Source: Haliotis cracherodii
Lineage: Eukaryota
Assembly: GCF_022045235.1 (NCBI RefSeq)
Contig: NW_027266265.1
Coordinates: forward strand, 47,430,001 to 47,494,000
DNA: 64,000 nt
Direction of reading: 5' to 3'
In this document: positions 2,151 to 61,400 of the stretch, one piece after another
Layout: each line of letters opens with the position of its first letter
Position numbering within the stretch: position 1 is the stretch's first letter
Notes under the pieces: generated by a model
What the model saw: only the letters and a program-made list of their open reading frames with translations
Database searches by the model: none
Told to the model about the DNA's origin: nothing
Position numbers and translations under genes: made by a program

Positions 2151-2548
2151 TTTTTCTTTGGTTTGAATACATGGTTCTCAATAGTTCTTAGGTGTTCGAA
2201 TTGTCTATCCTAGTTTAAATAGGTGCATGAAACAGATGTTTTCTCGGCAAATCATTTGAATCTATATATCTCACGTGATAATGCTGCCAAACTAGCTACG
2301 GCTTCGACACAGAACCGGTAGCGTTACTTATACCAGTAGTAGCAGCTGTAGGAGAAGACGTGGTCGACATTAAACTAGCAACGCCACAAGCAGCAGTCGA
2401 AGTGGAAGTAAAAGCAGAAACAGTAACAGCAACAACAACAGCCACGTCATATGCAAGCAGCAGCGATAGTGGCAGTGAATGTACCAGCATAGAATTCGTG
2501 TCAGGTCATGTGACTTGATGCTACAGCAGGCGGACATCGGAAGCTTTG

Positions 2549-2790
2549 TCTGTTTGTTGTTTATCGTCGAAGTCAGCAATAGTCCAGCTGCATGACGGCG
2601 GTCTGTCAATAATCGAGTCTGAACCAGTCAATCCAGTGATTGACTCCATGAGCATCGATCTACGCAATTGGGATAGATGACATGAATCAACGAAGTAAGC
2701 GAGCCTGACCACCCGATCCCGTTAGTCGCCTCTTACGACAAGCATAGTCGCATTTTACGGCGTGCATGGGTTGCTGAAGACCTATTCTAC
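2549..2790 (-). mobile_element. Family B SINE-like element
   Basis: Matches consensus including duplicated gcttgYcgtaaRaggcgact unit. Confidence 0.88.
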
Positions 2791-6982: not shown

Positions 6983-7234
6983 ACCCGTGAAGATCTGGGT
7001 TAGAATAGGTCTTCAGCAACCCAGACTTGTCATAAGAGACGGCGAACGGAATCGGGTGGTCAGGTGGCTGACTTGGTTGATGCATGTCAGGGTATCCCAA
7101 ATGCGTGGATCGATGCTCATGATATCAATCACTGGATGGTCTGGTCGAGACTCGAATATTTACAGACCGCCGTCATAGAGCTGAAATATTGCTGAGTGCG
7201 GAGTTAAATAAACAAACAAACAAACAAACAACAA
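6983..7234 (+). mobile_element. Family B element, full length
   Basis: Starts acccgtgaagat; (AAAC)n tail; TSD acttcaataa at 6970-6979 and 7235-7244. Confidence 0.9.
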
Positions 7235-9431: not shown

Positions 9432-10270
9432 GTTCGAACCATTATTCATATATCTGAACTACTGTACTGTTAGAGTTTAAGCAGCTTCACTCACTGACAG
9501 TGCCGAATAAACAATAAACGTACACCACTGATGTCAAAATCAACAATGATTCATATTTTGAAATCAGCTACGCAAATTGTTGGGGGTTGGGGGTGGTTTG
9601 GAGGGGGGAGCGTTCCTCGGTAGACTTGGCCTGTCAGCGCCATTGCCGAATATTATCACCACGCATAATTACCATGTGAAGTTGGGCAGAACGTAGAGGA
9701 CCCTGAGAAAGTCAAACGCCGCCGGTTGGGAACTCTTCCAGCTCTCAGGATATGTAAAAAGCGTTGCTTGGTATTTAGCTACGAAACGTACGCTAAATTA
9801 ACCGACATGTACCCAATTTCTTGCATTGCCGGTCTCAAACGTGATCAAAATTACGTTTGACAGTAAAATTACTCGTTGCTACGAGATGCAATGGCTCCCG
9901 TCCGCATGAGTAATGTGTCAATTATATTATAATTTTTGGTTCATTTTCCGGAGGAAAAAATAACAATCAAGTACTCATTTGCAGTTTCGCTCAAAATTTG
10001 ATTCAAATTGAACACTTAATCCGTATTTAAACAATTATTAGCCGATGAAAATCAAAAGCGACATCTGTTCCTTAAATCGTGTATGTGCGTGTTACAAGTT
10101 ACAACCACCACTGTGGGGTTCATCGTGTGTTGCCAAGTGGTAAACGTCAGAGACCCGCATCACTTAGGGGTTTCCTCCCACAAATGGAATACTGTTCAAA
10201 GCGGTCTGAAACCCACTCACTCACTCACTCACTCACTCATCGCGGGTTGCATCTTGACAAGGTAGTAGCT

Positions 10271-10534
10271 TGGTTGGTTTGTTGTTTAACGCCGCACTCT
10301 GCAATATTCCAGCTATATGACGGCGGTCTGTAAATAATCGTGTCTGGACCAGACAATCCAGTGATTAATGTCATGAGCATCGATCCACGCAATTGGGATC
10401 GATGACATGCATTAACCAAGTCAGCGAGCCTGACCACCCGATCCCGTTAGTCGCCTTTTACGACAAGCATAGTCACCTTTTACGGCAAGCATGGGTTGCT
10501 GAAGACCTATTCTACCCCGGAATCTTCACGGGTC
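10271..10534 (-). mobile_element. Family B element, full length (reference copy)
   Basis: Perfect 11-bp TSD aggtagtagct at 10260-10270 and 10535-10545 fixes the 5' end at GACCCGTGAAGAT. Confidence 0.93.
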
Positions 10535-10834
10535 AGGTAGTAGCTAGTCGTACCAAGCGTGTATACATTTTTGGGAACAACACGCATATAAAGTTTGCTT
10601 GTATCAATGAATGTTGTTTTACACCGCAATCAGCGATATATACTCCAGCGGTTATATACTCCAGTTGCAAATAATGGAGCCTCGAGGCGTATATCTGTAG
10701 CAACGCGGTACTTTCGCTGTACGATGACACGTAATAACTCATCTAACACATTGTAACCATGCTTTCATGTCAGTCTTTTTGACTAATGTTTAATCTCTGA
10801 GAATATATATTTGATTAAAAAAAACGCTTTTATA

Positions 10835-11382: not shown

Positions 11383-13255
11383 TATTATTATTATTATGAT
11401 GATGATGATGATGATGATGTTCAGGTTGAAATAAAAAATGCAGTAAAGAGGGTTTGGGTGATCCTGGCACGGTCAGCCTGGTAAGGCATCATCAGCTCAG
11501 GGCCCTTGCCCCTTCTACACGCAGCCCAGACACCGAATGGGACTTCTCCCAGGAAGCGCTGCCTAGTTGAACCCTCCCAGAACTTTTCGGAGAATGTGAA
11601 GACACCCCAACACTGCAGCCTTCTGCATTACCGAGATTGTCAGAAGGGCTGTATTCCTGGCAGCAAACCCGGGTACTCTCCCAATGTCAGTCAACAGATT
11701 GGGAGGTACCAAACCTGAGGCACCGAGAACAATGGGGAGTAGGCCAACTTGGTACTTAGGATGCAAGCGTGACATTTCAAAAGCGAAGTCCGCATATTTG
11801 CCATGTTTTTCCTGAATCTTGTCAATCACATTAGTGTCAAATTCAATAATATAAATGTTTTCATTGGAATTATACAAAAGGACAAGGTCAGGCTTGTTGG
11901 CCTGGATACGTCTGAGGCTGTATACGGGACTATTTATCATTTTCCATGACACCGTCTTCATATTCTGGGTCGTACCATGGATTGACCTCTGCGTCAAAAC
12001 CACAAGCATGGCGAAGACGTCGCTTAAGATACTGTGTTTCAACGGTTAGAAAGCTGGGCATCCACTGACAATGTGTTGGACAGTCTCATTAAATTCATTA
12101 CATATTCTACATTTCATATTCACATTTTAATTCAAAATCACACATTGACGGTTTCGAGTGGGAAGTGACTGGTCCTGAGCAGCAAACAGAAAACCTTCCT
12201 GTTTCACTTTTCAGGCCAGCCGACCTCATTCAATGCCAAGGACATTTCAGGCTTGCAAACCTTTCTCAACACATTGCACATACACCCGATGCAGTGGTCG
12301 TTCAGATAGCCTCTCCTTGAAAGTCTGAGTCTGGGCCGATTTGATATGGCACTTCACTTGGTTGACACTCATTTCTGTACCGTCCAGCAGTACAGAATCA
12401 ACAACAAAATCAACACCGTCATTGAGATTATGTTCCACATCCTTGCCTCGTTTAAGAAAACTGGGGAATGCCTTGTTTTCATCATGAGTCTTGACATGCT
12501 TCACAAGAGGATCATCAGACAAATAAATATGTACAAAAGTGCACAAAACAATTCTATCATGAAGAGCCCCAACGTTAATCAAACCACGTCCTCCTATAAC
12601 GATTGGTAAATATAAGCGATTGAGGGAAGAGCGAGGGTGGTGCGATCTATTGTCTGACATGATTCTGCGTGTGTGGATGTCAATACCCTGAATTTCTTGA
12701 TTCGTCCAATCAACAACACCAAATCAATATGAAAGGACGGGTACAGCATAAGTATTTGTGGTTTTAACTTTATTGCGAGCATTTAGCTCAGAACTCCACA
12801 GATTTTCTTAAGTCTACATTTGTACTCTGCCCGAAGTGTTTCCTTGACATGGGCATTCTGGAGTTCGTCCCTAATCTGCATCCCTAAGTACGTATAGAAT
12901 TGACCTTCCACGAGATGGTCAATAACTCCTCCAACTGACTAAGCCTCTCTCTTCTACCTTGCCAAGTTTCAGGTGAAGAATGTTGCATTTGTCGAGTCCA
13001 AAGGACATGCTGATGTCATTAGAAAAGGTGAGTGAGTGAGTATGGTTTTACGCCGCTTTTAGCAATATTCCAGCAATATCACGGCGGGGGACACCAGATA
13101 TGGGCTTCACACATTGTACCTATTTCGGGAATCGAACCCGGGTCTTCGGTGTTACGAGCGAACGCTTTAACCACTAGGCTACCCAACCGCCATCATTAGA
13201 AAAGGACTCGACAAGGCAAATCTTTTTTGTTAGTGTGGATCCTCCATTGGCATTC
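11383..13255 (-). mobile_element. 5'-truncated, decayed R4/Dong-clade non-LTR retrotransposon (RT C-terminus, CCHC knuckle, restriction-like endonuclease)
   Basis: Minus-strand fragments: FSNDISMSFGLDKC and YTYLG (RT), RLYLPIVIGGRGL, GFLFAAQDQSLPTRN, CRICNEFNETVQHIVSGCP (~12055-12117), ANKPDLVL..YIIEF, PIVLGASG, MQKAAVLGCLHILRKVL; stop at 11563; (CAT)n(AAT)n tail at 11383-11419. Contains frameshifts and a SINE insertion. Confidence 0.9.
13029..13191 (-). mobile_element. SINE family A inserted in the Dong-like RT
   Basis: Perfect 13-bp TSD tcattagaaaagg at 13016-13028 and 13193-13205. Confidence 0.93.
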
Positions 13256-13917: not shown

Positions 13918-14162
13918 TTTTGTTTTCGCACTCCGCGATTTTCCAGCTGTATGACGGTGGTCTGTAAATAATCGAGTCTGGACAAGACAATCCACTGATT
14001 GACATGAGCATCGACCCACGCAATGGGGATACGATGACATGCATCAACCAAGCCAGCGAGCCTGACCACACCATCCCGTTAGTCACCCCTTACGACAAGC
14101 ATAGTCTCTAATGACAAGCATGGGTTGCTGAAGACCTATTCTAACTCGGATCTTCACGGGTC
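13918..14162 (-). mobile_element. Family B element, full length
   Basis: 5' end GACCCGTGAAGATCC; consensus body. Confidence 0.9.
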
Positions 14163-16669: not shown

Positions 16670-16830
16670 GTGAGTGAGTATGGTTTTACGCCTCTTTTAG
16701 CAATATTCCAGCAAAATCACGGCGGGGGACACCAGAAATGGGCTTCACACATTGTACCCATGTCGGGAATCGAACCCGGGTCTTCGGCTAGACGAGCGAA
16801 TGCTTTAACCACTAGGCTACCCAACCGACC
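16670..16830 (-). mobile_element. SINE family A
   Basis: TSD ctgaaggRcacga at 16657-16669 and 16834-16846. Confidence 0.92.
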
Positions 16831-19381: not shown

Positions 19382-19662
19382 GGGGGCACGGGTGGCCCAG
19401 TCGTCTAAGGCGCCGCGATTCGCTGTGCAGAGCTGCGTCCTTGGATACGCCAGAAACCTATGATTGCGGGTTCGAATCCCGGTTCGCCCCAATTATGTTT
19501 CTAGGTTTGTCAGCACCATACCCGTGTTCGTGGGTTTCACCGAAGTGGTAAACGCCTGAGACCTGCATCACTTCCGGCTTTCCTCCCACATTAAGCTGAC
19601 AGCCGCGATATAACTGGAATACTGTTAAAAGCGGCGTTAAACCCAACTCACTCACTCACTCA
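19382..19662 (+). mobile_element. Family D SINE: long tRNA-Leu-like head, V-domain-like core, shared tail
   Basis: tggcccagtcgtctaaggcgcc A-box region, gggttcgaatccc B box, tccggctttcctcccaca (V-SINE-like); perfect 14-bp TSD ctgtatggtgctta at 19368-19381 and 19663-19676. Confidence 0.88.
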
Positions 19663-24276: not shown

Positions 24277-24490
24277 ACCCGTGAAGATCCGGGTAGAAAA
24301 GGTCTTCAGCAACCCATGCTTGTCGTAAGAGGCGACTAACGGGATTGGGTGGTCAGGCTCGCTAACTTGGTTGATGCATGTCATCGTATCCCAATTGCAT
24401 GGATCGATGCTCATGGTGTCAATCAATAGATTGTCTGGCCCAGACTCGATTATTTACAGACCGCACTGATATAACAAACAAACGAAAGAA
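24277..24490 (+). mobile_element. Family B element (single-hairpin variant, tail partly deleted)
   Basis: acccgtgaagatccgggtagaaaaggtcttcagcaacccatgcttgtcgtaagaggcgactaacggg. Confidence 0.9.
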
Positions 24491-24818: not shown

Positions 24819-25063
24819 GTTTGTTTGTTTGTTGTTGAACGGCGCACTCATCATTGTTCCATCTATGACGGCGGTCTGTCAATAATCGAGTCTGGACCTG
24901 ACAATCAAGAGACAGATATCATGAGCATCAATCCACGCAATTGGGATACAGTGACATCAACAAAGTCAGCGAGCTGACCACCCGATCCCATTAGTCGCCT
25001 CTTACGACAAGCATAGTCGCATGGCTTACTGAAGACCTATTCTAACCAGGATCTTCACGGGTC
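24819..25063 (-). mobile_element. Family B element, full length
   Basis: TSD tgtgRccttaga at 24807-24818 and 25064-25075. Confidence 0.9.
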
Positions 25064-25160: not shown

Positions 25161-25382
25161 GAGGTCTTCAGCAAGCCATGCTTGCCGTAAAAGGCGACTA
25201 ACGGGATCGGGTGGTCAGGCTCGCTAACTTGGTTGATGCATGTCATCGATCCCAATTTCGTGGATCGATGCTCATGATATCAATCACTGGATTGTCTGGC
25301 CCAGACTCGATTATTTACAGACCGCCGTCATATAGCTGGAGTATTGCAGAATGCGGCGTTAAACAAACCAACATCAACAACA
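25161..25382 (+). mobile_element. Family B element, slightly 5'-truncated
   Basis: TSD acaataccata at 25150-25160 and 25383-25393. Confidence 0.9.
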
Positions 25383-31790: not shown

Positions 31791-32130
31791 GTGAGGTAAA
31801 ATGGGGTTTAATGTCGCGTCCAAGATTATATAGAAACGTACACGTAGGTGTGTGTTTGTGTGGCTGCTTGTACTAGTCCGGACTGATGCCGATTTATAGA
31901 ACTAGCTCACTGAGATACCATGCCGCAGTTTAGCATAAATACCCCACTCAGACACAGTATACTGTCTCCGAGGTGACCAGTCCTTGTTTAAGCCCCTTTA
32001 TGCCGAGCGCCAGACAGGATAACAACAAGTACCATATTTTAACGTCTTTTGGTATGACGCGGCCGGGGATCGAACCCCGGACCATCCGCTCTCCGGGCGG
32101 ACGTTCTACCACTAGACCACGGATGCGGTC
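31791..32130 (-). mobile_element. Family C (MetaSINE-type) full length
   Basis: Perfect TSD tccaaaaacag at 31780-31790 and 32131-32141. Confidence 0.9.
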
Positions 32131-32355: not shown

Positions 32356-32624
32356 GACCTGTGAATATCTGGGATAGAATAGGGCTTCAGGAACCCATGC
32401 TTGTCGTAAGAGGCGACTAACGGGATCGGGTGGTCAGGCCCGCTGACTTGGTTGATGCATGTCCCCGTATCTCAGTTTCGTAGATCGATGCTCATGATAT
32501 CAATCACTTGATTGCCTGGTGAAAACTAGATTATTTATAGACCGCCGATATTATAGCTGGAATATTGCTGAGTGCGACGTTAAACAAACAAACAAACAAA
32601 CAAACAAACAAACAAACAAACAAA
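32356..32624 (+). mobile_element. Family B element, full length with (AAAC)n tail
   Basis: Starts gacctgtgaatat; consensus body. Confidence 0.9.
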
Positions 32625-35560: not shown

Positions 35561-36030
35561 GGTTACGATTGGCCAAGTCACATAAGGCGTTGCTGTGCAG
35601 AGTTGTGTCCCTTAGGCGTGACCATCGGTTCGAATCCCTTTTCGACGTTTTTTGTTTGTTGTTTAACGCCGCACTCAGCAATATTACAGCTATATGACGG
35701 TGGTCTGTAAATAATCGAGTATGGTGATTGACGTCATGAGCATCGATCCACGCAATTGGGATACGATGACATGCATCAACCAAGTCAGCGAGCCTAACCA
35801 CCCGATCCCGTCAGTCGCCTTTTACGACAAGCATAGTCGCCTTTTACGGCAATCATGCCCTTTCGACGATTATTTTTCTTCGTTTGTCAGCTACATACCC
35901 TTGGTCGTTGGTTTCACCACTGAAGACCTGCATCATTTCGGGCTTTCCTCCAACGTGAAGCTGACACGCCGCGATATAACTGAAATACTGTTCAAAGCGA
36001 CGTTAAATCCGACTCACTCACTCACCCACT
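35561..36030 (+). mobile_element. Family D SINE split by a family-B insertion
   Basis: Head 35561-35640; body and tail 35869-36030 match the 19382 copy. Confidence 0.82.
35650..35857 (-). mobile_element. Family B element nested in a family-D SINE
   Basis: Flanking cccttt(t)cgacg TSD at ~35636-35647 and 35858-35868. Confidence 0.87.
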
Positions 36031-45049: not shown

Positions 45050-45478
45050 ATTTACGATAATGAAGTATTCGTATTTACAGTAACCATGTACTCGTATTCA
45101 TAAAAATCACGAGGGGGCGGTCGGGTAGCCCAGTGGTTAAAGCGTTCGCTCGTCACGCCGAAGACCCGGGTTCGATTCCCGACATGGGTACAATGTGTGA
45201 AGCCCATTCCTGGTGTCCCCCGCCGTGATATTGCTGGAATATTGCTAAAAGCGGCGTAAAACCATACTCACTCACCCACTATAAAAATCATGTAATCGTA
45301 TTTACAGTAGTCAAGAACTCGTATTTACAGTAAATCAATTAATCGTATTTACAGTAGTCAAGTACTCGTATTTACAGTAACCAATTACTCGTATTTACAG
45401 TAACCAAGTACTCGTATTTACAGTAACCAAGTACTCGTATTTACAGTAATCAATTACTCGTATTTACAGTAATCAAGC
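45050..45478. repeat. 22-bp minisatellite interrupted by SINE A
   Basis: tactcgtatttacagtaaccaa. Confidence 0.92.
45113..45280 (+). mobile_element. SINE family A (near consensus) inserted in a 22-bp minisatellite
   Basis: Head gggtagcccagtggttaaagcgttcgctcgtcacgccgaagacccgggttcgattcccgac resembles tRNA-Asp(GTC); TSD ataaaaatca at 45100-45109 and 45281-45290. Confidence 0.93.
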
Positions 45479-52835: not shown

Positions 52836-52994
52836 TGGGTGGTCGGGTAGCCTAGTGGTTAAAGCGTTCGCTCGTCACCCCGAAGACCCGGGTTCGATTC
52901 CCGACATGGGTACAATGTGTGAAGCCCATTTCTGGTGTCCCCCGCCGTGATTTTGCTGAAATATTGCTAAAAGCGGCGTAAAACCATACTCACT
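52836..52994 (+). mobile_element. SINE family A inserted in the Tc1 transposase
   Basis: 13-bp TSD tcactcactctgc at 52823-52835 and 52994-53006. Confidence 0.93.
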
Positions 52995-54290: not shown

Positions 54291-54417
54291 TCTACATATA
54301 TATATACATACATACATACATACATACACGATCTATTAGGTTGCCTCTCACGACCACCACAGGATGCAGGGGACCTATTCTAACAGTGAACTTACTTTGT
54401 AACTCTGCCACGCTTAC

Positions 54418-54837: not shown

Positions 54838-54990
54838 TTTGTTTTTTTGTTTAACGCCGCACTCAGCAATATTCCAGCTATATGACGGCGGTCTGTAAAC
54901 AAGCGAGTCAGGACCAGACAATCAAGTGATTGACATCATGAGCATCGATCCACGCAATTGGGATATGATGACATGCTAGTCGCCTCTTAG
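54838..54990 (-). mobile_element. Family B element, internally deleted, in the intron upstream of the SRCAP exon
   Basis: Tail and body match; flanked by aggtaagacatgg direct repeats. Confidence 0.85.
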
Positions 54991-57493: not shown

Positions 57494-57651
57494 GTGAGTG
57501 AGTATGGTTTTACGCCGCTTTTAGCAATATTCCAATATCACGGCGGGGTCACCAGAAATGGGCTTCACATATTGTACCCATATTGGGCATCGAACCAGGG
57601 TCTTCGGCATGACAAGCGACCGCTTTAACCACTAGGCTACCCGACCGCACC
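57494..57651 (-). mobile_element. SINE family A inserted in a family-E repeat
   Basis: TSD aatatacga at 57485-57493 and 57655-57663. Confidence 0.9.
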
Positions 57652-58239: not shown

Positions 58240-58479
58240 TTAGTTTGTTTGTTGTTTAACACCGTACTCAGCTAGGTTTCAGCTATATGACGGCGGTCTG
58301 TAAATAAACGAGTCTCGACCAGATAATCCAGTGATTGACATCATGAGCATCGATCCACGCAATGGCCTACGACGACATGCATCAACCAAGCCAACGAACC
58401 TGATCACCCGATCCCGTTAGTCGCCTCTTACGACAAGCACAGTTGCCTTTTACGGCAAGCATGGGTTGCTTCACGGGCC
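58240..58479 (-). mobile_element. Family B element lacking the first 5' hairpin
   Basis: Reads ggcccgtgaag|caacccatgcttg instead of gacccgtgaag-atccgggtagaataggtcttcag-caaccc. Confidence 0.88.
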
Positions 58480-61400
58480 GGCAAAGATGTTTAAATATCT
58501 AACAAATTAATTGAAACAATACATTTTATTATTGTTGTTTATCAAATGTTTGAAAAAGGAAACATGGTGAAAAATACTATTAATCAAACAAGGGGTGTAT
58601 ATTATGGTGGCCGAGAGGGGACATCGCTTTCTCGCTTTCTCGCTCCCCATAGTATATAGGTATATCTATAAGCTTAAGATATAATCTCCTCCTCCTCCAC
58701 GCACCCCCACCTCCCCAACACACACACGTACCCACACGCATATACACTTTGCAATTCCTCCCACTGCACAAAATATACCTATGTGTTGAAAAAAATAACA
58801 ATTTTAACCCCGCCCCATATTGCATAGTTCAGTTCTTGTTTATCAAATCCGCAAATCGTTGTAAATTTAAAACAAAGCTTATCAGTTCTCATTGTAATAA
58901 TTTCTGTCATATAGGATTTTCTGAATGTTCGAGGAAAAACATTACTCCAACCAAAGCATGTTTTAAAAAAAATGTAATGTTAAAACGAAAACATCGCATG
59001 GGCTTTGCAATTTCGTAGATATGCTACAATGCAAATTTGACCATCTGGGCTAGATTTCCCAAGAGAGTGATATCAGAGTTACCTCCCCTCGATTGACCAC
59101 CAATCAAATGAAACATTTTATGTATCTTTCCGTCAGAGACACTACCCTCTCCTGCGGCTGACGGCTCATGTTTCGCACGATGAGCTAAGAATAACCCTCC
59201 CCAGTACCGAAGACAGACAGGCGTATTACACACACGCGACTCCCCGACTTGGTGATTTGTAATTAGAGTTAATTTTTAATGTTTGTTGGGATTTGAAATT
59301 CGAATTAAATAGCGTGGAAGTACGCTTGTTGTTTTAGTATTGAAGTTTTAGGATGAATAACGATGTACGTTGAATGATAAGATACACTATTGCATTTATA
59401 TTCCGGTCAGGAAGAGTTGCAATGACATTTTTAATTCAACTGATATAAAAGTTCATTCTTAGTCGCGGCACGTGCAATATCCATGACTTGGGTTATAGGA
59501 ACACAGTGTTAATTTTGTGGACCGGCAATCGGTGAATAATATTCTTAGTCTAGCTATGTCACGCTGGCCTAAAAGCAACTAGGGCCTTGGAACAAAGAGC
59601 CCAGATGTTGACCCGAGATTCGACCCGTGCCATAAGGTGAGAATTGCTCTTTCTAGGTAGTATACCCATACAATCCACACTAGCCATGTATTGTGACCAT
59701 CTGATACTCAATAATTACTTCCCCCCACCCCCCACCCCCCCACACACCGACATACTGATACTAAGGACATATTTTATTCCACCATCATAATGTCATAACG
59801 AGATTAGAAAGTATAGGTATTATGTAAGAAATTTAAAAATTAGATCAAGTATTATATTTCAGTGTGGGCCCGATATCCTTGTTTATGATCATATATAATT
59901 TTAATATGCATTTTAAATATTTTTTATGAAATAAATAATGATGAATGAATTCCAGTGTTACGTTAATCGGTCATCAGAATCGAATCTTTGCTTCATGATT
60001 GTAAAGTGTAAATGCAGTAATATTTTCTTCTTCACTAAATCAAGGAGCAAAGTGGAGATTTATCATCACTTAAACACAGCTTCCACTTCTCTGATCAACA
60101 TCATCATCAAACTCTATCAGTCGATTATCATCAATTCATTATCCAGGTATTCTGTTTCTACGAATAAGGAAAACCACAGCTGTTTCGAGCTGATTGTTTG
60201 CCTTGAATCAAGATGCTCTGTGGAAATAATTGATGGCATGGTTATTCTTGCCACGAAAGGCTAGACAAGGGAGATAACCCAACCCATCTTATGACTAAGC
60301 TGTTCCCAATAGGCCTTGTGCAAAGTTGAGTCCAAACCTCAAACGCGGGTCTTTCAGCACGGCACGATGTTTCTAGGCAGAAAGGTGAGCTCGTTAAAAC
60401 CGTTATGTTACACATGATCGTACAGTTACATTTAAGACATTCTAACCATTACGCGAACACCTGGTGTCATTGATGTTCACAGTATTATTTTCATCGCTGT
60501 TGCCGTTTAGGATGAATCTGTTTCACCAGATTATCGAGACTGACTATTCACTAGCGTTGACGTTTTTTTCTGTGTATATTTATATTTCTTTTATATTTAC
60601 TGCCTCATAAAAACATTTGTATATAACTAACACACGCACACAGGAACATAGTCTTCACAATATATATGACTAAACAACAACCCGTTTTTTGTCATTTTTA
60701 ACAGTTCACTGGGTACTCAGTATCGAATTTTTTAGAAATAAACTGATTTATTCTCAAAAACATTGTTCAGCCGCTCTCAGCCCGTACCCTATGGGATTTC
60801 AATGGCATGTATTCAATACCCTGTGCTTATTCACAGATCTATCGTGGTATGAGGACATATATACTCTCACAGCGTCCGGGTTGTTGCTATGTGTATTCAA
60901 AATGTTTTTTATAATCTAGTCACTTAACTGACATATTAACACTTAATAAATACCAACAACACATGTCATGATGTGTTCTGAAACTGAAAGTATTTTATAA
61001 AGCAATTAGCCTTTACACACGTGTACATTGTAAAGATATATATGCGGACATAGGAAGCAATACTTAAATTTTAATGCAAAGGAAATCGATATGTCAAATA
61101 ACAAGTTTCATTTCTTTGTAGTTTATGTTTATTATATATTCTGTATGCACACGTGTTAAGAGATAATCAAAACTCAATGTAATTTCTCATATTTTCATGC
61201 AATTAGAATGTTATTTAATCCTATTCAGTTATCAGTAATGGATATATTTAAAAACATGCTATTATTTGCCACAGAGGTGATAGGGTAATTGATTAGAGAC
61301 AGCTTATTCAATTAAAACATTTTCTAAAATTTATTGAAGCTTAAAAGTCGTATGACTATTCTATTGCTACTTCGAAGGATTACTTTGAAATATGACATGA

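Follow-up and report, generated by a model that had tools for sequence, protein, structure and literature searches.

Which process gives a precise 5′ end to short retroelements that appear to have neither a promoter nor a ribozyme of their own? This is what is at stake in a repeat that recurs along the 64,000-nucleotide stretch of Haliotis cracherodii DNA analysed here (hereafter, the window), the head of which was proposed in a preliminary description of the same DNA to be a functional RNA.

The repeat family of the window

The hairpin motif of the head is found 11 times in the window at up to two mismatches, for 0.03 expected, and a 12-nt start motif five times, for 0.17 expected (at 6983, 10533, 14161, 24277 and 25062); with the diverged copy at 32356, at least six copies share one start, as first described. 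BLAST delimits about 15 loci of the repeat, which is thus as real as the preliminary description had it with its approximately 14 copies, but target site duplications (TSDs) are less general than stated there: those of at least 10 nt were retrieved by script at seven of the 15 loci (2790, 6983, 10534, 24277, 25063, 25162 and 35857) and one more was recognised by eye at 54976. The search found none at 14162 and 32356.

The copy at 10271..10534 (minus strand), defined by its sequence, BLAST and the TSD script, is a full-length element of the LP-SINE type presented below. TSD mapping places its 5′ TSD at 10535..10545, directly abutting the first G, and its 3′ TSD at 10260..10270 (both on the minus strand); the same abutment holds at 25063, both cases having been correctly reported from the start. 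This copy belongs to a subfamily with a 22-nt duplication of the hairpin region, visible in its sequence at 10465..10486 (minus strand, read 10486-10465) and absent from the preliminary description. Its 3′ part (10271..10319, minus strand) consists of a LINE-type tail and (AAAC)n repeats, and aligns to the 3′ end of the LINE L324 (see below) with a score of 39, the maximum of 300 shuffles being 32. As a representative with a single-hairpin head (24277-24343), we used the plus-strand copy at 24277..24473, supported by BLAST, a TSD and a covariance model score of 72.9 bits, this copy being a training sequence of the model. BLAST, the covariance model and the TSD script further define full-length copies at 24820..25063 (minus strand, abutting TSD) and 6983..7224 (plus strand, with TSD), and full-head copies in which no TSD was found at 13927..14162 (minus strand) and, diverged, at 32356..32600 (plus strand). 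Three copies with TSDs are truncated at their 5′ end (2542..2790, minus strand; 25162..25372, plus strand; 35651..35857, minus strand; BLAST and TSD script), and one has an internal deletion in its head (58240..58480, minus strand; BLAST and covariance model).

A tRNA-derived SINE can be ruled out. Rfam gave no tRNA match at any copy of the repeat in the window, no exact A box is present in the repeat and its single B-box-like 9-mer, at +127, is isolated; on these points, a head unrelated to tRNA and the lack of Pol III A and B boxes, the preliminary description was right. The only tRNA-like match in the Rfam scan of the window lies elsewhere than the repeat (32064-32119, minus strand, 30.6 bits) and is probably the head of a separate tRNA-derived SINE. 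At about 54335-54385 (minus strand), a diverged head of a related family, with L3 and hairpin motifs, precedes a microsatellite and was missed by the covariance model. Finally, short matches to the tail only (400-935, 13045-13087, 16683-16725, 19598-19642, 45220-45262, 52942-52984 and 57507-57546) point to other repeat families with the same LINE-type 3′ end.

Most likely, the repeat is the published mollusc LP-SINE (PMC4758252). LP-SINEs are known from gastropods and bivalves, with Hdi_LP, Hmi_LP, Lsa_2 and Sgl_LP as members and including 255-bp Haliotis families, and have a head of ~70 bp in common with the 5′ ends of Nimb-17_LMi, I-3_DR and RTE-9_CPB (PMC4758252). The window repeat has the same ~70-bp LINE-derived, non-tRNA head, TSDs, a tandem-repeat tail and no coding capacity; its length to the tail start is 231 nt, or 253 nt with the duplication, close to the 255-bp consensus of Hdi_LP and Hmi_LP, with which it was compared by length only. 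The Chlamys SINE head printed as the 'Nimb-17 homology' block (supplementary Fig. S2 of PMC4758252) has the same hairpin-UAA motif and layout as the window repeat, and by eye it fits the helices S1, S2 and S3 described below; Nimb-17_LMi was compared through this Chlamys head only. The same paper proposes a promoter for the head, notes the analogy with Pr77 and calls for experiments; its accessible text reports neither an RNA structure nor a tested function, and neither viral copies nor an upstream ribozyme. The preliminary description had accepted that its proposal would fall if the head were simply a known LINE 5′ UTR, and this turns out to be half the case: the head is a known 5′ domain of Nimb, I and RTE LINEs and of LP-SINEs, but that text gives it no structure or function.

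A 5′ end fixed to about one base

Our genome sample covers 664 kb, of which 164 kb are the window and its neighbourhood. In this sample, of 119 alignments extending into the 3′ part, 61 begin within the first 10 nt, and extrapolation gives roughly 100,000 head-bearing copies in this genome. In 97 heads, the two bases before CCCG stand out, position -2 being G in 62 and position -1 being A in 78, and from -3 upstream the composition is near background. The gap between TSD and CCCG in the 38 heads with a TSD is 2 nt in 22 and 1 nt in 8 (30/38 at 1-2 nt), and 0, 3, 4, 5 or 8 nt in the remaining eight. Base composition and TSD gaps thus confine the SINE 5′ end to about one base, in line with the initial claim of a head with a fixed start.

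SINE families start 6 nt upstream of the U that forms loop L1 of the module. In three families from metagenomes this U-6 position is fixed in 20/27, 14/16 and 5/6 copies and U-7 is not; these starts rest on base composition, as TSD mapping there gave only eight candidate TSDs. All four SINE families whose start was mapped begin with a purine (G, A, G and G). A purine is the typical first base of transcription starts and is not predicted by nuclease trimming; this favours a promoter and counts against the exonuclease roadblock that we put forward below. The head could then be a dual element like trypanosome Pr77, in which an internal promoter acting at the DNA level starts at the first purine and the RNA fold is separately protective or binding. 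A +1 G in only 62 of the 97 heads of this genome is compatible with a copied cap, and the promoter already proposed for the head cites the Pr77 precedent (PMC4758252); against it, the head has no A box, and two further observations, from viruses and from LINEs, are weighed below.

Predicted fold of the head

Comparison of homologs predicts that the head is a conserved RNA structure made of a 5′-terminal H-type pseudoknot followed by a helix, S3, and an invariant hairpin. The module reads, in order, S1 (4-5 bp), a 1-nt L1, S2 (7 bp), L3 ending in AGAAUA, S3, one base, a 4-bp hairpin with a 7-nt loop (P5), UAA and an optional S4. In the copy at 10534, all on the minus strand, position 10534 is the first base; the 5′ strand of S1 (10529..10533) pairs with 10519-10515, its 3′ strand (10515..10519), which lies within the S2 loop. 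L1 is the U at 10528. The 7-bp S2 joins 10521..10527 to 10507-10501 (3′ strand, 10501..10507), and the conserved L3 end, which anchored some of the searches, occupies 10508..10513. The 3-bp S3 hairpin (10488..10500) holds the 5′ strand of S4 in its loop; P5 follows at 10450..10464, and the UAA joiner with the S4 3′ strand, which would form a second, optional pseudoknot drawn by eye, at 10443..10449.

This fold was evaluated by a sequence-anchored count over 15 representatives, one per family or virus; they are not fully independent, several annelid-like families being related. S2 is paired in 97/105 cells, compared with a mean of 62.7 when partners are swapped (0/5000 swaps as high) and with 38-50 in shifted registers; the L1-U anchor behind this count was set after sight of the sequences and is hence post hoc, a first, looser rule having given 68/105. 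For S3 the count is 44/45 (swap mean 27.0, 0/5000 as high) and for S1 57/60 (swap mean 50.7, 1/5000 as high), S1 pairs including G-C/C-G and C-G/G-C swaps across families. A structure-blind MAFFT alignment of 13 of the 15 homologs has S1-S3 paired in 92.7% of cells, a percentage that none of 500 shuffles attained, with 10 pairs changed on both sides; all seven S2 pairs show such changes. Among ten held-out copies examined in a fixed register, S3 is complete in eight and S1 and S2 fit fully in only five, the other five having an A as L1 (three, by eye), a bulge in S2 (one) or a truncation (one).

Evidence for the 3′ half is of another kind. P5 was located by the hairpin motif search and its invariance is imposed by the search patterns, so that it carries no information on P5 pairing; a looser pattern returned only already known matches among the matches listed (234 loci scored). 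Its loop variants in LINEs and viruses retain U at position 1, A at 5 and G at 7, which suggests a T-loop-like loop. S4 is non-significant in a fixed register (18/45 cells, 1740/5000 swaps as high), visible by eye in two registers and absent in the virus L038, and we therefore call it optional. The upstream part of L3 is expanded by ~60 nt of (TAAG)n-rich sequence in the L094 family and by pyrimidine-rich sequence in others, the helices being kept. Folding of single copies was uninformative (z from -0.25 to -2.2, with a different structure for each copy).

The preliminary description had anticipated a functional structured RNA with a pseudoknot, and its two named hairpins are correct; its other pairings are not supported. 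Its P1, joining the 5′ strand to the strand after CUAA, and its GGGU/ACCC pseudoknot are paired in 48.1% of cells of the MAFFT alignment of 13 homologs, compared with 46.1% after shuffling. With free registers, the anchored count gives 42/60 for P1 (12/5000 swaps as high) and 49/60 for the pseudoknot (10/5000), both below the 57/60 of S1. The element contains two C-runs and two G-runs that can exchange partners, which explains why these pairings stand modestly above swaps; by comparison of the homologs, the partner of the 5′ C-run is the G-run in the loop, the reverse of the first assignment.

On the corrected fold, the lead idea of the preliminary description becomes a new class of self-cleaving ribozyme cutting just upstream of S1. 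A compact, predicted pseudoknot with invariant unpaired bases and the nucleotide-precise SINE start speak for it; the supposed cut site, on the other hand, has no conserved bases, and the module matches no Rfam ribozyme. As the preliminary description had judged by eye, the module is unlike HDV, hammerhead, twister and pistol, for which our own mappings by eye failed as well. Rfam returned no hammerhead, twister, pistol or hatchet match at E<=10 or E<=5, and an HDV-like module was rejected for lack both of an Rfam match and of a P3/L3 between the supported helices. No Rfam family at all matches the module, E-value scans giving only chance miRNA and lncRNA matches.

The module outside mollusc genomes

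An exact 18-nt scan retrieved five viral contigs and at least 120 metagenome loci, and further scans added L177, L178, L456, L437/L458 and five loci in prokaryote assemblies. The initial guess that the motif may be widespread is therefore borne out, by metagenome families, LINEs, viruses and a phage-like contig. The metagenome loci make up several SINE-like families; inspection of the longest ORFs recognised no coding LINE downstream of the module among the 120 loci listed. Viral matches discarded as chance were 9/14 in one scan, and most of 25 + 44 and most of 96 + 9 in others. The loci in prokaryote assemblies (L496-L500) are animal-type repeats and likely host contamination. In one animal repeat, two complete modules stand in tandem at the head (L067:1370-1518), as in the viral tandems below, and in the present genome a tandem array of ~47-bp units derives from the first half of the head (L015, G000:C8:30657617-30658065).

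Six distinct RNA-virus-type genomes carry the module on the sense strand, 5 to ~120 nt past the last stop and near the 3′ end. Four of them encode an RdRp (L044, L047, L178 and L456) and two show capsid domains only (L036 and L038/L046); the module is in tandem in L036, where the contig end cuts the second copy, and in L456. In the record of a 212-kb DNA virus, it is intergenic between two ORFs of the same strand (L177:4980-5056). It is also intergenic in a phage-like contig (L437:3987-4063, minus strand; L458:352-428), where 18/18 positions are paired, 231 chance loci having reached at most 15. The intergenic region around this phage-like copy is long and hairpin-rich, and the nearby genes are almost devoid of PHROG or Pfam matches.

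Viral copies differ in sequence yet keep their pairing by compensatory change, which argues that the module is selected in viruses. This stands against a passive capture by viruses of a site bound by a LINE protein for integration, after the manner of the R2 5′ pseudoknot. R2 protein does bind a pseudoknotted RNA (PMC12222951), but the module accompanies Nimb, I and RTE proteins alike (PMC4758252), and we hold this explanation to be very improbable. All conserved bases of the module are common to the genomes of RNA viruses. Such genomes have no DNA stage, so that no DNA-only motif is left in the module, contrary to what a Pr77-like internal promoter would need.

An HDV-like ribozyme upstream of the module in LINEs

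A genome pattern search (262 matches; control, 0) led to L324 (G000:C2:21442006 onward), an autonomous I-group LINE with endonuclease, RT and RNase H and a 12-nt TSD. Its tail is related to that of the SINE, with a different repeat unit. Its first 57 nt (L324:507-563) match the HDV-like family RF02682 of Rfam with E=0.0044 and 27.5 bits, below the gathering score of 44, and show a 7-bp P1 with G1-U, a 3-bp P3, a 7-nt L3, GG for P1.1, the C of J4/2 and P2. By these features they are an HDV-like ribozyme and the candidate cleaver of the LINE RNA. Here and in related loci, it is a minimal form with almost no P4 at the head of I-group LINEs. The module begins where P2 of this ribozyme ends.

We picked 29 other copies of the LINE by the sequence that follows the module: 27 start at G1 of the ribozyme, one at S1 and one inside; the copy starting at S1 adjoins an inverted repeat copy and is thus ambiguous. 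Since nearly all of them start at the ribozyme, the module is unlikely to be an efficient cleaver or a start-fixing promoter. A search of 20 further sources, 19 of them LINE loci whose ORF1 identity goes as low as about 52%, found the ribozyme abutting the module in 17; in L538, a substituted ribozyme precedes the module, and L544 is truncated within the ribozyme. These heads are nearly identical and are therefore not independent events; as ORF1 is only 52-64% identical, they suggest that LINEs exchange 5′ UTRs. In one copy from a bivalve-symbiont assembly (L500), the module lies in this same LINE 5′ UTR but no ribozyme match precedes it.

Self-cleavage of the module is accordingly disfavoured: if efficient, it would remove the upstream ribozyme, and these 27 copies keep, ahead of an intact module, the 57 nt in question. 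Moreover, a cut at the start of the 3′ UTR would sever the genome end of a linear RNA virus. A spread that is independent of the host, phage-like contig included, would suit a ribozyme, and UTR ribozymes do occur in linear RNA viruses, mostly in 5′ and rarely in 3′ UTRs (PMC13725137); overall we find a new ribozyme class improbable. The same start 57 nt upstream of the module weighs on the Pr77-like dual element, which we likewise think has a small chance of being correct.

The HDV-like ribozymes of R2, RTE and L1Tc (Pr77) offer a parallel, each being a structured 5′ module of ~70 nt common to unrelated retroelements. The present module differs from them in lacking the P1-P3-L3-P1.1 order and in being a separate element placed directly after such a ribozyme in these LINEs, which, with ribozyme and module in tandem, constitute a natural control.

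A possible roadblock to exonucleases

The explanation that we favour, at a little under an even chance, is that the module is a roadblock to 5′-to-3′ exonucleases, comparable to xrRNAs. A passive barrier to decay explains the SINE start and the LINE start alike. In the proposed scheme, a SINE lacking a promoter and a ribozyme of its own would be part of a read-through host transcript, degraded from its 5′ end until the nuclease stops at the base of S1; such a stop would explain the near-identical start base of full-length copies. An I-group LINE, recognising the common tail, would then reverse-transcribe the protected RNA. In LINEs, the first end would come from ribozyme cleavage, with the module as a second barrier behind it. 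A ribozyme product with a 5′-hydroxyl is a poor substrate of Xrn1; read-through RNA without a ribozyme would, by contrast, be trimmed to the pseudoknot. RNAs trimmed in this way could seed new module-headed LINEs and SINEs, and in viruses the module would yield 3′-terminal subgenomic RNAs.

Known xrRNAs depend on a pseudoknot and are found in 3′ UTRs, where several often follow one another (PMC8374639); the viral 3′ UTR position and tandem copies of the module fit this picture, as does the predicted pseudoknot at its 5′ edge, which has comparative support. In class 3 xrRNAs, Xrn1 stops at the P1 base, and these RNAs also function outside their native context (PMC12397905). With those of Tombusviridae and Solemoviridae and with flaviviral xrRNAs, the module has in common a compact pseudoknot, location in viral 3′ UTRs, tandem copies and a boundary at the base of the first helix. 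It differs by the lack of a three-way junction and of a J1/2-L2B network, by its 1-nt L1 and its additional S3 and P5, and by its presence in animal retroelements, its resistance being putative. No sequence, topology or Rfam match was found with xrRNA classes 1-3 or coremin, whose architectures were compared by their descriptions; for coremin, the hp1-spacer-hp2 consensus (PMC10520033) is missing.

Besides the purine start, further points count against the roadblock. The HDV-like fold is itself thought to shield 5′ ends (PMC11331408), which would make a roadblock behind it seem superfluous. Blocking gives no role to the invariant P5 hairpin, which lies ~45 nt away from the module edge. Finally, the phage-like copy belongs to a host without Xrn1. 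Alternatively, the module may bind a host factor such as the ribosome or an initiation factor; it would then enhance translation without a cap, from within viral 3′ UTRs and on uncapped LINE RNA, and bring SINE RNA to the ribosomes that make the LINE protein. Its two invariant loops resemble a binding surface. The tombus-like group, in whose genomes the module is present, is known for 3′ translation enhancers; the module is also retained downstream of a ribozyme whose product is uncapped, and in L177 it lies 155 nt upstream of a long ORF. Such binding alone gives no physical RNA end at the S1 base in several SINE families, however, and the phage-like contig has the module with a Shine-Dalgarno site downstream; we consider it unlikely.

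Returning to the roadblock, it is possible, if short of probable, that a new class of nuclease-blocking RNA gives animal LINEs and SINEs a third route to a 5′ end, besides promoters and ribozymes, and has passed between these elements and RNA viruses, a large DNA virus and a phage. The corrected fold defines helix-by-helix mutants able to separate four mechanisms.

The SINE was already known, and the RNA motif of its head is undescribed in the searchable literature and in Rfam (Repbase being out of reach); the same literature, with paywalled work, figures and preprint supplements beyond its bounds, yielded no description of the fold, the viral copies or the ribozyme-module tandem, and a search with the motif string gave 0 matches. 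Precedents for RNA motifs common to viruses and to mobile or repetitive DNA are s2m, a plain stem-loop, and the ENE triple helix, which protects poly(A) 3′ ends; we claim no likeness of sequence or fold to either. Whatever the mechanism, the RNA motif is a new one: 70 nt long and without an Rfam family, it keeps its structure under compensatory selection both in animal retroelements and in unrelated viruses. Should the roadblock prove true, cellular genomes would have their first example of a working xrRNA, present in the genome studied here in roughly 100,000 copies.
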